Source: Chiloscyllium plagiosum (lineage: Eukaryota). From it: 64,000 bases of DNA. Positions 7,013 through 62,422 of the stretch are shown here, piece by piece. The stretch lies in contig NC_057719.1 of NCBI RefSeq assembly GCF_004010195.1, positions 36,867,067 through 36,931,066 on the forward strand, given 5' to 3'. The number at the start of each line of letters is the position of its first letter. Position 1 is the stretch's first letter. The position numbers were made by a program, and so were the translations under genes. The notes under the pieces were generated by a model. That model made no database searches, was not told where the DNA came from, and worked only from the letters and a program-made list of their open reading frames with translations.

Positions 7013-7200
7013 TGATTTGGAGATGCCAGTGTTGGACTGGGGTGTACAAAGTTAAAAGTCACAGTACACCAGGTTATAGTCCAACAGGTTTAATTGGAAG
7101 TACACTAGCCTTCATCAGGAGCGTCGCTCCGAAAGCTAGTGTACTTCCATTCCAATTAAACCTGTTGGACTATAACGTGTAGTGTGATTTTTAACTTTGT
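7013..7200. mobile_element. Palindromic Penelope-derived mini-element (family C) with a split hammerhead motif
   Basis: Inverted arms 7046-7109 / 7135-7200; centre contains revcomp CCTGATGAAG and GGAGC-GTC-GCTCC-GAAAGCTA; flanking direct repeat TTGTTCCAGCGA (7001-7012) / TTGTTCCAGTGA (7197-7208). Confidence 0.7.
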
Positions 7201-7312
7201 TCCAGTGAGGTAGTGGTGGTCATGGGTTTCTTTTTTTTCTGAAATACAGCAGCCTTGTAACTTTGCTGGTCCAGACAGATTTGAAGGAATTGATATTTGT
7301 AAAACTGCTTAC

Positions 7313-7478
7313 CTTGCAAATTCTGCCAGCTGCTTTGGGTCAGAGAGATCAATACCAGGTATCCCACCAGGGGGAAGTTTCTTGCCAGTCATGTATTCAG
7401 AGTAATCGGGTGGAGAATTTTCTCCAATGATTTGTTCCTCCACCACAGTTTCATGGTCAATATCAGTTTTCTTATCAT
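7313..7478 (-). CDS. YY1: YY1 exon 2 (166 nt, phase 1 to phase 2)
   Basis: tttcag| acceptor and AG|gtaagc donor; translates (D)[54 protein letters not shown](R), the YY1 spacer region; frame-compatible with exon 1. Confidence 0.97.
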
Positions 7479-9779
7479 CTGAAAGGCAGAAAAATAATAT
7501 TTGAGACCTTCAGACCTCAAAATCTCTTGGCAAACTAATTAAACACAAGAGGTCATGAAACAGAAGTTGTTGCATTACCGAACAAGTGGTACCAGATTAG
7601 CTTTCATTTCTTAACATGTTGCTAAATTAAACGGTTTTCAGACTTTTAACATTGTTTAAAATTGAAAAAACCATAAATGGCCGCTGTGAAAAAGTTGCTT
7701 ATTAAAGGCTAGGAAGGAAATTTGACTTGGTTGATGAATTCTTCATCTGAATGAAGAATTGAACCAACAGTAGAAATTGATGTAAAATTATTCAGCCTGG
7801 AAAACCATAAACAATTCTGTTTTTGAAGGAATTTATTTTGTTTCCTAAGCTAATAAAAGATTTGGATGTAACCAAGACAACTCGTGAGCGCAGATGAAAA
7901 ATTCAAGCCATTTTGTTAATTGGCTGAGATTTGGCTACTGGATATTGCAGATAATGTTGTATTTAGAAAGAGGTATTGCCTGCCCTTCCCTAAAGGGAAT
8001 TAGGACAGTGCAATTCTGTGCACTTCCAGAAATGCTCACATTCCACACAAATAAATGGACAACATACTCTTTAGTTGCAGCCAATTACAGCTTTATTTCA
8101 GGCATGGGTGCAAGAATTGTGTTTCAAAAGGAGAGGCCACTAATTCCAAAGCATGGAACCACAACATCCAGAAAAACTGAAAAATCAATCAAGCTCAGCA
8201 GAACAGCTTTGCAATGAAACTGGTTGTGGATTTGCCCCAGGACATTACAGTAATGTCTCAGTTAATTGCCTGGCTTTCCCTCTCAAAATCAGAAGCAAGC
8301 CTGCTTGTTGGCCATTCTGCAGTGGTCAGCTAGATTCCCAACTCTTCTAAAGGAAAGAGTTGATCACAGATTACCGCAAGGCCTAGACAATAAGCCAGTT
8401 TGGGCCATCTGGTGGCAGGATATTATTTACACTGGGTTTGACTTGGTAAGTCAATGTGGCAAAGGCCCCGTCTTCCATCTTTGGTGAATCATTAGTGCAA
8501 TTAATCATTGCCACTGCCTCACTGACCAGAAGCCCGGCCATATCAACAACATAGCTAAAAGCTTAGGAGTTAGATACCCTGGGAAGAGAAACTGACCTCT
8601 TGCTCCATCATTGACAAACTACAAATCGGTAATGAGATTGAAGATCCAGCTGCATGGTTACAGCTAATACATTCAAGAAACACAAGACCATTTAGTGCAT
8701 AACAGGGCTCAGTCTTTGTCTCTTTAACTGGATACAATATTAATCCTCTCTACTATAAATATAGTGGCTTCAGCACATAACCATCCAGTGCAGCAACTCA
8801 GCGAGCTTTTCTCAAAAGCATCTCAAAGTTCCATAACCTTTACCATCAAGGCAGCAGCAAAACAATGGGTAAGATATCACCTGCAAGATTGTCACTTTCA
8901 CAACATTCCAACACTAACATGCACTGTTGTTCCCTAATTATTACTGGCTAAACATGCTAAAATTCCTTAACTAAAGACACTGTGGGACCTCTGACACAAC
9001 AAGTAGAATAACACAGTCACTAGCCACCAGGGGAACTAAGGATCAAAAATAAATGCCACTGCTACCCTGCCACCCCAAACTTGGAACTAAAGAAATATTG
9101 ACTTCAGACTTTACAGCTTGTACCTAATGAAATGTATCAATTTGACTATTAGGGTCAGCTACCACAAGGTTTTGACTTACTTTTCCTTAAATGCAAGCTT
9201 GCAGTGATATATCCAATTTCACCTAATAGCAAACACCAAATGCTGACACAATGATCCTGCAACTACGTGACAGCAATGAAATAGAACTTAATATATCTTA
9301 GACAAATGGAAGGCTGTCTGTCTTTAAATCTATAATGAACACTGGGGATATAAATGAGAAAGGCCCACCATTTAAAATTTTCTTGACTAGTCTAGATTGG
9401 GGTCGAACACAGCACAGGTATCCACTTAGCAAATCTAGAAATTTTGATTTAGGAAAGCAGCTATTTTCAAAAAAAAAATGAGAAGAGCCTACTGACTGAA
9501 TGTGCATGTAACAATTTTAAAAAGTCCTTATATTCGGTATGTAATTTTTATGGTTTATTTGATATATTCCAACCAAGTACCTTACAGTTACAGGTTACTG
9601 TCATATCACAATGTATAAGGAGCAGCACCAGAGATGGGCACTCAGCATTGCTTTCAGTAGGTGTTGAGAAAAAGAAACCCAAGACAGAGACAGACCTGGA
9701 TTAATTGCATGAAATGGTGCGTAATTAGATTTTCGACCTTCTCAGCTCCAGTTTAAACGAAATAGTCTGAAAAAAAAAA

Positions 9780-61542: not shown

Positions 61543-61686
61543 TGAAACACAAGTAGAAAGTGCTAGAAAAACTCAGTGAGTCTGGCAGCATCTGTGGAGA
61601 GGGAAGCTGGCTTAATGTTTTAAGTTGAGTTTCTTCAGCACTCTGTTTGTGTTTCAGATTTCCAGCATCCACAGTTCTTTGGTTTT
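61543..61686. mobile_element. Family-B Penelope pseudo-LTR palindrome, decayed
   Basis: tgctagaaaaactcag...tctggcagcatctgtggagag arm and inverted gagtttcttcagca...tttcagatttccagcatc arm; approximate TSD ataaa(t/c)agat(a/g)g. Confidence 0.55.
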
Positions 61687-62228
61687 ATAAACAGATGGCT
61701 GAGCTGGTTTAATAAGAATGGATGAAAGCAAAAGGGAAAAACCTGAAACAGTTAGCTATGGATCTCACATAGGGTTAGCCTTTCAACATTGTATAATGCA
61801 GAATAGCGCTGTTTGCAGTAGCTAATCCACTGTGCTGCTTTTGAAGACTTTTCCAACTTTTATAATGCCATTTGTCAGAAGCAATAACCTGCCAACCGTA
61901 TTACTTAATGTTATATTTTCTAATCGCAACACTATCATCACTCCCTTGAGTGAACATAATTATAACTCAGGTGACAGAAATTCATAATGAACTTTAAAGG
62001 AGTAAACACTATTTTGTACTCTTGTTGCCTTCAGACAATGGTTCATGAATCTACTCACAGGTATGATTTAAGAGAGGATTTCAAATCCCAACTGTTTCCA
62101 TGAAAATTCTATTAATTTTTTATTGCCTGTTTCTACAATAATGCTCACAACTTGTGAACTGTGGGGATAGAGTCAGAAACAGAGAAGGGGTTTGCTTTTG
62201 TTGTCTCGGTAGACTTCTTTTAGAAGAA

Positions 62229-62422
62229 GGTTGAAACTTTATTGCTGGAACAGCACAGCAGGTCAGGCAGCATCCAGGGAACAGGAGATTCGACGTTTCG
62301 GGCACAGGCCCTTCTTCAGGAACGTCGAATCTCCTGTTCCCTGGATGCTGCCTGACCTGCTGTGCTGTTCCAGCAATAAAGTTTCAACTTTGATCTCCAG
62401 CATCTGCAGACCTCACTTTCTC
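62229..62422. mobile_element. Palindromic Penelope-derived mini-element (family A)
   Basis: Near-perfect inverted arms (about 62230-62297 / 62321-62388); perfect 12-bp TSD cttttagaagaa (62217-62228 / 62423-62434). Confidence 0.88.
62288..62323 (-). ncRNA. Minimal type-I hammerhead ribozyme motif, intact core
   Basis: GUUC-CUGAAGA-A-GGGC-CUGU-GCCC-GAAA-CG-UC^GAAU. Confidence 0.7.

Follow-up and report, generated by a model that had tools for sequence, protein, structure and literature searches.

Minimal hammerhead motifs at the probable 3' ends of Penelope-like elements in a genomic window of the shark Chiloscyllium plagiosum

The hammerhead-like motifs scattered through the window (the whole analysed stretch of 64,000 nucleotides of Chiloscyllium plagiosum DNA) are very probably the 3' pseudo-LTR (pLTR) ends of at least two, and probably three, families of endonuclease-bearing, Neptune-like shark Penelope-like elements (PLEs). 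Judged from sequence, the motif appears to be the minimal type-I hammerhead of PLE terminal repeats, a class described in 2014 (PMC4209133), and the copies appear to be short, mostly broken or antisense-arm-locked decaying insertions rather than working parts of host genes. The PLE link, the minimal type-I identity and the high copy number proposed in a preliminary description are supported by coding remnants, contig coverage, metagenome families and PMC4209133. The novelty and the activity that it implied are not supported: that paper already places minimal hammerheads in the PLE pLTRs of metazoans including fishes, coelacanth, Xenopus and reptiles. Two of the three proposed families, here A and B, stand as such; the third, C, consists of one split copy in the window.

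The PLE-derived features are as follows (window coordinates; TSD, target-site duplication).

11371..11522, minus: family A insertion, TSD 15 bp with 1 mismatch; 11373-11502 is a tailed arm whose core is intact (C3 11497; G10.1>A mismatch; putative cut after 11470), and an inverted arm of 20 nt (11504-11523) is paired across the 3' half of its motif
15701..15917, both strands: head-to-head fold-back of family A, inserted within the family B element's 3' UTR, exact 15-bp TSD (15686-15700/15918-15932); C3 15823(-) and 15829(+), centre 15826; ~34-nt tail on the minus arm only
20707..20833, plus: family A single tailed arm, C3 20712, GAGC/GCUC, G5>A, tetramer AAGU; TSD score not above control
21181..21236, minus: family A fragment without ribozyme core
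22630..22840, both strands: family A fold-back with its junction inside CUGAUGA, tail on the plus arm; TSD of 14 bp (2 mismatches), scoring inside the control range
34845..35061, plus: 115-nt open-frame segment (34845-34958) followed by a family A arm (34959-35061; C3 34967, G12>A); 8-bp exact flanking repeat (34835-34842/35062-35069), score within control range
49222..49337, plus: family A tailed arm starting from helix II, without CUGANGA; exact 13-bp TSD
55355..55530, both strands: family A fold-back, exact 13-bp TSD; plus arm C3>G, tetramer ACAU; minus arm begins 6 nt past the cut site
55754..56280, plus: family A 3' end with GIY-YIG C-terminal remnant (to ~56008), pyrimidine-rich UTR, hammerhead (C3 56186, tetramer ACAU, triplet AUA) and tail-less end
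62232..62424, both strands: family A fold-back, TSD 15 bp with 1 mismatch; minus arm core intact (C3 62319, putative cut after 62292); plus arm begins at A14 and, in folding, pairs across tetramer, cut site and helix I
13553..13862, plus: decayed PLE reverse-transcriptase fragment with no attached hammerhead (tblastn with P0001/P0002, E ~1e-11 to 1e-12)
15076..15463, plus: family B element, decayed Cys linker (C-x4-C-xx-C near 15109-15135, also in P0001/P0002) and GIY-YIG remnant (tblastn with P0001, E 2.5e-09)
15933..16092, plus: hammerhead-bearing pLTR end of family B, C3 15965, GGGUC/GACCC, 4-bp helix I, G12>A, tetramer AUGU
44267..44589, both strands: two old arms of family B, oppositely oriented, with a damaged core at 44498(+)
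46470..46589, minus: family B tailed arm beginning inside helix II
50257..50376, both strands: family B fold-back without ribozyme
61543..61689, both strands: old family B fold-back without ribozyme core
7013..7200, both strands: family C insertion forming a fold-back (stem GGAGC/GCUCC, tetramer AGCU, triplet CUA), core split with CUGAUGA on the minus arm and stem II plus GAAA on the plus arm; only the left arm is tailed; possible 12-bp TSD (7001-7012/7197-7208), whose score of 9 matches the control maximum

A strict descriptor of the motif (core, helix II, NN-UH) matched the window exactly four times, against a shuffle mean of 0.03, and 12 times with at most one mismatch, against 1.4; across 30 dinucleotide shuffles the maxima were 1 and 4, respectively. 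All coordinates reported earlier contain the sequences claimed for them, and the stems (GGGC/GCCC, GAGC/GCUC, GGGUC/GACCC, GGAGC/GCUCC) and the stem II loops (UUAU, UUUU, UCUU, CUGU) are confirmed. Five of the eight copies listed as carrying the motif keep CUGANGA, GAAA and UH (C3 at 11497(-), 15823(-), 15829(+), 56186(+) and 62319(-)), but the other three are core-damaged, with G12>A in 15965(+) and 34967(+) and G5>A in 20712(+). Similarly, the palindromic tetramer said to mark intact copies is ACGU in five of these eight, and each of the three other tetramers differs by one change, at CG; no intact AGCU copy occurs in the window, where AGCU is confined to the family C copy at 7118-7138, which has its CUGAUGA on the other strand. 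Further arms absent from that list lie at 21181-21236, 44267-44363, 44498-44589, 46470-46589, 50257-50376 and 61543-61689. The core is intact in 5/12 tabulated arms and is the majority state in the alignment, in which the 22716(-) arm is broken at its fold-back junction; the extra A between A9 and 10.1 is present in 11/11 correctly indexed arms, and position 10.1-11.1 is G-C in 9/13 rows and G-U in one. The window motifs combine the core with an additional A following A9, a G10.1-C11.1 pair and a palindromic tetramer, and lack helix III. They have neither the covariance-model match nor the helix III of canonical type-I hammerheads, and the Rfam check that had been proposed returned zero hammerhead families among 18 matches up to E 10. 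The Rfam matches that did appear are of microRNA-precursor type, all below gathering score, and reflect palindromes only.

The association with PLEs is direct for families A and B. As claimed, tblastn places two hammerhead copies downstream of GIY-YIG endonuclease remnants, the pLTR location expected downstream of an RT/GIY-YIG ORF; the family A remnant matches, at 81%, a protein that its source labels Chiloscyllium punctatum, and the homologues P0001 and P0002, named as shark proteins, have both RVT_1 and GIY-YIG matches. Within the window, reverse transcriptase and GIY-YIG occur as separate remnants, and a full-length element is absent. Family C is linked to PLEs through similar motifs in the metagenome loci L020 and L037 only, the L037 motif lying 816 nt 3' of a match to a PLE endonuclease. 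The families are abundant: 89,601 contigs of run X1 align to one 631-bp copy. The majority read letters in X21 restore ACGU/GUC; no reads of run X22 aligned, which is uninformative, and a search of runs listed none of RNA, which has no bearing on expression. A pile of loose ends at 56182 (179 reads in X21, agreement 0.48; 45 contigs in X17, agreement 0.34) fits a common 5' boundary but was set aside as proof of one, being also explained by subfamilies with different UTRs that rejoin at 56180-56182. The segment 34845-34958, which we had presumed to be the start of the element's ORF, was not confirmed as such: protein searches gave one spurious leucine-rich-repeat match only.

The short insertions show target duplications of 12-15 bp, fold-backs in head-to-head arrangement and a ~35-nt tail on one side, which are hallmarks of PLEs; fold-backs with a one-sided tail agree with the accounts in PMC8557442 and PMC3846280. 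Duplication scores reached 12-15 in 5/17 tested insertion spans; 150 random spans gave at most 9, a score that the remaining 12/17 did not exceed. Short length, fold-back shape and the sub-threshold microRNA-precursor matches could also suggest an unrelated SINE, MITE or microRNA-like hairpin family in which the hammerhead likeness is incidental. However, the repeats run directly on from GIY-YIG remnants, their tails are one-sided, their arms are head-to-head with both arms of one subfamily, and the same motif occurs with different stems beside PLE genes in other organisms; the Rfam matches, as noted, only reflect palindromes. We consider this origin extremely improbable and largely refuted.

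Of 14 short family A arms, nine start at the 5' ribozyme edge (-8 to +3 of C3) and none at the cut site, which fits uncleaved RNA templates. These starts also fit a variant of the same PLE origin in which the motif is no longer a nuclease but has been retained as a structural mark close to the 5' end of the RNA, or close to the region where protein binds and reverse transcription starts. Consistent with this variant, helix I is weak, particularly in family A, where it comprises 2 bp, a mismatch and 1-2 bp, with 60% of cells paired (family B has 4 bp); no pile-up of beginnings or ends was found in 2064 RNA reads; and, for an Anolis PLE, PMC11167929 reports that hammerhead mutants insert normally in vitro and that RNA-seq reads ending at the cut site are absent. 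However, most of the sequences in both alignment and reads favour a complete catalytic core, with G12 and the UH triplet as majority letters, the Anolis motif cleaves with its protein present (PMC11167929), and the RNA library, of a poly(A) single-cell type with fragmentation, tests only weakly for cut ends. We treat loss of nuclease function as unlikely, though it carries appreciable weight.

Two host genes are partly contained in the window.

25441..26001, minus: YY1 first coding exon (match to YY1 chain 4c5i_C, E 4.8e-10)
~7313-7478: presumed YY1 second exon, placed with known motifs
near 26627-26708: desaturase first coding exon
40874..41707, plus: exon of a sphingolipid delta-4 desaturase (DEGS-type; Pfam FA_desaturase 1.2e-25, Lipid_DES)

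The copies had been described as scattered through both genes. This holds for the YY1 introns, with the family C copy 7013..7200 in intron 2, and for desaturase intron 1, but not beyond 41707: the last desaturase exon was not found in the window, and copies there are thus not assignable to the gene. Some copies might serve within introns as ribozymes, active or domesticated, that cleave the pre-mRNA of YY1 or of the desaturase. One example would be 11497(-) pairing with 15823(-), 4.3 kb apart on the transcribed strand of YY1 intron 1, both with an intact core and ACGU. However, folding in context pairs each with its own inverted arm, with P(helix II)=0 for both; the fold-back carrying 15823(-) and 15829(+) folds as a single long hairpin. 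Only 15823(-) among the five core-intact arms is fully paired, and this copy, whose perfect 5-bp helix I is partly supplied by the fold-back junction, is buried in that hairpin; 11497(-) carries G10.1>A. Across the window, 4/5 core-intact arms lie in folding-blocking fold-backs and all unlocked arms are damaged. Decay is of CpG type, without excess core conservation, and 6/2064 RNA reads match the reference copy, which is not one of the YY1 intron copies, at >=99%. A cutting function in these introns is very improbable, and the PLE copies are most likely inert there.

Patterns of change within the window resemble decay. CpG columns (eight, two of them within junction-derived sequence) differ in 22/78 cells against 27/250 in the flank, and core conservation (3/88 against 17/200 for the flank, p=0.14) is not significantly above that of the flank. 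The stem covariation claimed for these copies is not borne out inside the window, where the 13 arms do not exceed shuffled letters (covariation score equalled or exceeded by 31/500 shuffles, paired cells by 164/500). Covariation across copies does emerge among related families on metagenome contigs. A search pattern built from the three window families, with helix I and the tetramer left out, found 103 loci forming 53 clusters of related families; helix I averages 2.13 bp in these clusters against 0.69+/-0.14 shuffled (reached by 0/2000 shuffles), and 45/53 have a palindromic tetramer. A PLE protein match lies upstream on the same strand for 8/105 pattern matches, and any PLE protein match occurs at only 10/103 loci, many of which are short. 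Some of the pattern matches resemble chance bacterial coding sequence.

These data are consistent with a model in which the full element would carry the hammerhead within its pLTR, downstream of the GIY-YIG gene and separated from the tail by ~130 nt. Without helix III, the hammerhead would form only as a dimer, through the palindromic tetramer, probably assisted by the element's protein, as is known for other PLEs. Modelling of isolated 38-mers speaks against this without being informative: the hammerhead dimer was the lowest-energy dimer in 0/5 arms. The endonuclease would nick the target, giving the 12-15 bp duplications observed. Reverse transcriptase would start at one of two sites ~35 nt apart, a mechanism drawn from PMC11167929 and matching the one-sided tail, and would usually halt within ~130 nt, often with a second inverted copy, as observed. 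Because the core on the upstream side of the cut site is still present in the copies, we infer that most templates were uncleaved RNA; once inserted, copies would decay, CpG sites first.

The window motifs share with the minimal hammerheads of PMC4209133 the core, the extra base between A9 and 10.1, G10.1-C11.1, the palindromic 15.2-16.2 tetramer, the lack of helix III, several families per genome, mostly single or opposite-strand copies from truncated elements and, less clearly, a short helix I; all four of its unselected traits are present. They differ in helix II, which has 4-5 bp here but 7-8 bp in the examples from Schistosoma and fugu, and in the internal mismatch of family A helix I. 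No shark name was found in the text of the supplement, its figures being outside the text search, and the literature search found no paper naming these shark families. Anolis carolinensis Poseidon (PAc; PMC11167929) likewise has its hammerhead in the pLTR ~100-130 nt before the end, an optional 30-40 nt tail, no reads at the cut site, and copies from uncleaved RNA, reported for PAc and inferred for the shark. However, PAc belongs to the Penelope/Poseidon clade and was tested with its protein, whereas the shark remnants are known from sequence and have a Neptune/Nematis-type Cys linker. The C-terminal GIY-YIG and CX2-5CxxC linker resemble those of Neptune-clade EN+ PLEs (PMC8557442); the linker is also common to Nematis, and membership of the Neptune clade is putative. 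The 5'-truncated and inverted copies, junction palindromes, one-sided tail and TSDs recall both those PLEs and the Adineta inverted pLTR copies (PMC3846280), although most window copies start at the ribozyme or within it and measure only 120-220 bp. Non-LTR retrozymes, reported in one chondrichthyan genome, also have type-I hammerheads from PLE pLTRs but form head-to-tail arrays (PMC7229834; bioRxiv 10.64898/2026.07.22.740005), whereas no motif in the window lies in a head-to-tail tandem array.

A more speculative reading, which we consider highly improbable, is that long shark pre-mRNAs carry several compatible half-ribozymes (~1 PLE end per 4 kb), such that sense copies could pair over kilobases and cut introns. 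The fold-back arm would then act as an antisense lock letting intact cores be tolerated, and the fixed starts of short copies would be a fossil record of the uncleaved RNA 5' end. The findings as a whole demonstrate neither a new ribozyme nor a host function. Their significance is modest: they add very abundant repeat families of a shark to an already described class of PLE ribozymes, and in these families the 5' starts of many insertions could test whether PLEs copy cleaved or uncleaved RNA.

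A descriptor search of the window for the minimal type-I hammerhead (CUGANGA, an optional extra base, helix II, GAAA, and NN-UH) returned four exact matches (mean 0.03 across 30 dinucleotide-shuffled versions) and 12 near ones (mean 1.4); the sequences reported in the preliminary description were present at each of its coordinates. Self-comparison of the 64 kb recovered 10 insertions comprising 15 arms (oriented copies) of family A (stem II GGGC/GCCC), five insertions of family B (GGGUC/GACCC), and a single insertion of family C (GGAGC/GCUCC). No tandem array of the motif was found in the window, and an Rfam search of it up to E 10 returned no hammerhead match. 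Rfam microRNA matches, under the gathering score and located on palindromes, were rejected. An assembly gap (133 N) occupies 37104-37236.

These motifs belong to a known class, correctly recognized; only the members are new. PMC4209133 describes minimal hammerheads in the fish Penelope-like elements (PLEs) Xena, Poseidon, and Neptune; coelacanth and Xenopus contain thousands of them, which fall into several families and include opposite-strand pairs. No shark names were found in its supplement text, and a literature search found no paper on shark PLE hammerheads; this search covered a 2026 preprint (bioRxiv 10.64898/2026.07.22.740005) without its supplement, in the accessible part of which PLE-derived retrozymes are reported in one chondrichthyan. 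The whale shark genome paper includes Penelope among its listed elements.

The motifs had been described as scattered through both host genes:

YY1, minus strand
DEGS-type desaturase, plus strand

They do occur in both orientations in intron 1 and intron 2 of YY1 and in the first desaturase intron, with placement reaching only to 41707. The two genes start head-to-head within 25441-26708, at most ~600 bp apart. Many fragments of a LINE-type retrotransposon carry RT-like frames (10064-10706, 13928-14799, 31232-33905, 44763-45132, 51912-52778, and 54508-55340), and broken frames at 798-1280 and 4405-4686 are candidate LTR retrotransposon integrase and RT/RNase H parts.

A frame at 55754-55981 shows 71-81% identity to shark proteins source-named Rhincodon typus and Chiloscyllium punctatum, which bear RVT_1 and GIY-YIG matches.

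Remnants recovered by back-search with the shark proteins
55775-56008, GIY-YIG remnant
15076-15463, GIY-YIG remnant and C-x4-C-xx-C linker
13553-13862, RT remnant

At both GIY-YIG remnants the order is remnant, pyrimidine-rich UTR, motif, upholding the earlier placement of the motif downstream. Target duplications scored 12-15 in five of 17 spans (maximum 9 among 150 random spans), and fold-backs, or pairs of inverted arms, are head-to-head, an additional ~33-38 nt being confined to one of the two arms; these are traits described for PLEs in PMC8557442 and PMC3846280. At 15686-15932, a family A fold-back (15701-15917) with an exact 15-bp duplication is nested in a family B 3' UTR, so A arrived later than B at this site.

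Many copies appear decayed. Of eight listed as the motif, five keep the full core and three are mutated.

Changes in individual copies
15965 and 34967, G12>A
20712, G5>A
11497, minus strand, G10.1>A
56186, tetramer ACAU, non-palindromic

The sole fully paired copy, 15823(-), has an arm that physically begins 2 nt 5' of C3 (the core position naming a copy), its remaining helix I strand deriving from the fold-back junction; in context (15701-15917), one long hairpin encloses both cores, with predicted P(helix II)=0. A 20-nt inverted arm overlays the 11497 core, the 62319 tetramer and cut site pair with an inverted arm in the predicted fold, the 22716- core is broken at a fold-back junction in alignment, and family C has CUGAUGA and stem II on opposite strands. 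A small GAGGC/GCCUC hairpin lies immediately 5' of the core at 56160-56181, and a similar hairpin with different letters occurs in a contig from X1, a run searched as contigs. In family B (16000-16016, 46549-46570, and 61590-61612), the motif is followed by a pyrimidine tract, CAG, and ATG, resembling a splice acceptor and start codon.

Structure was 75.7% paired in 13 window arms versus 12-57% for slid partners (helix II 94%, helix I 60%); it stands above slid partners but not above shuffled letters (covariation score 31/500, paired cells 164/500). Core positions differ in 3/88 cells versus 17/200 in flanks (p=0.14, two junction rows omitted), and the most-affected columns are CpG. Given shuffle-level covariation and this core-flank comparison, the window alone does not demonstrate selection on individual copies. 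Covariation across organisms, however, is clear: a pattern spanning the three families matched 103 metagenome loci, and helix I, outside that pattern, averaged 2.13 pairs in 53 clusters versus 0.69+/-0.14 in shuffles (0/2000), reaching at least 3 bp in 20 clusters against 3.7 expected. The palindromic tetramer occurs in 45/53 clusters (half permitted by the pattern). PLE protein matches lie upstream on the same strand for 8/105 motif matches, and anywhere for 10/103 loci; part of the pattern matches are probably due to chance. No long stretch of DNA in any of the 103 loci matches the families of the window; two loci (L037 and L020) match family C at 92% over 25 nt. One metagenome contig (L016/L017) carries the motif three times at ~2365-nt spacing, with 8-bp helix I and without a PLE protein match.

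The high-copy claim holds insofar as 89,601 X1 contigs matching the reference copy 55700-56330, a figure that is not a copy number, indicate a very abundant repeat. In X21 (raw poly(A) single-cell RNA), 2064 of 12.96 million reads matched this copy, on both strands; six had at least 99% identity and 96% continue into unlike sequence, so they derive from numerous other copies. Read depth is ~20-28 over the UTR and climbs to ~700-1370 across the motif and 3' end, and ACGU and GUC are restored when the majority letter is taken. X21 showed no sites rich in molecule starts or ends, a weak test for cut ends given the library type.

Among 14 short family A arms, nine start within -8 to +3 of C3 and three start inside the motif; another two begin 3 and 6 nt past the cut site, while no arm begins exactly where the cut falls, the start of a fold-back arm being its junction centre by construction. 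This small sample fits copying of uncleaved RNA with a 5' end or stop point at the ribozyme edge. At 34845-35061, a 115-nt open-frame segment abuts a motif-bearing arm, and a short direct repeat flanks the pair. Should the segment be the start of the element's ORF, this would be a permuted copy via template jumping.

Traces of the proposed mechanism visible here comprise pseudo-LTR position, target duplications, truncation, inversion, a one-sided tail, and decay. According to PMC4209133, minimal hammerhead monomers did not cleave and dimers cleaved weakly; in PMC11167929, the Anolis motif cleaves only with the element's protein, insertion in vitro is possible without the motif, and two reverse-transcription start sites define the tail. 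By analogy, master elements of these shark families may use the motif likewise.
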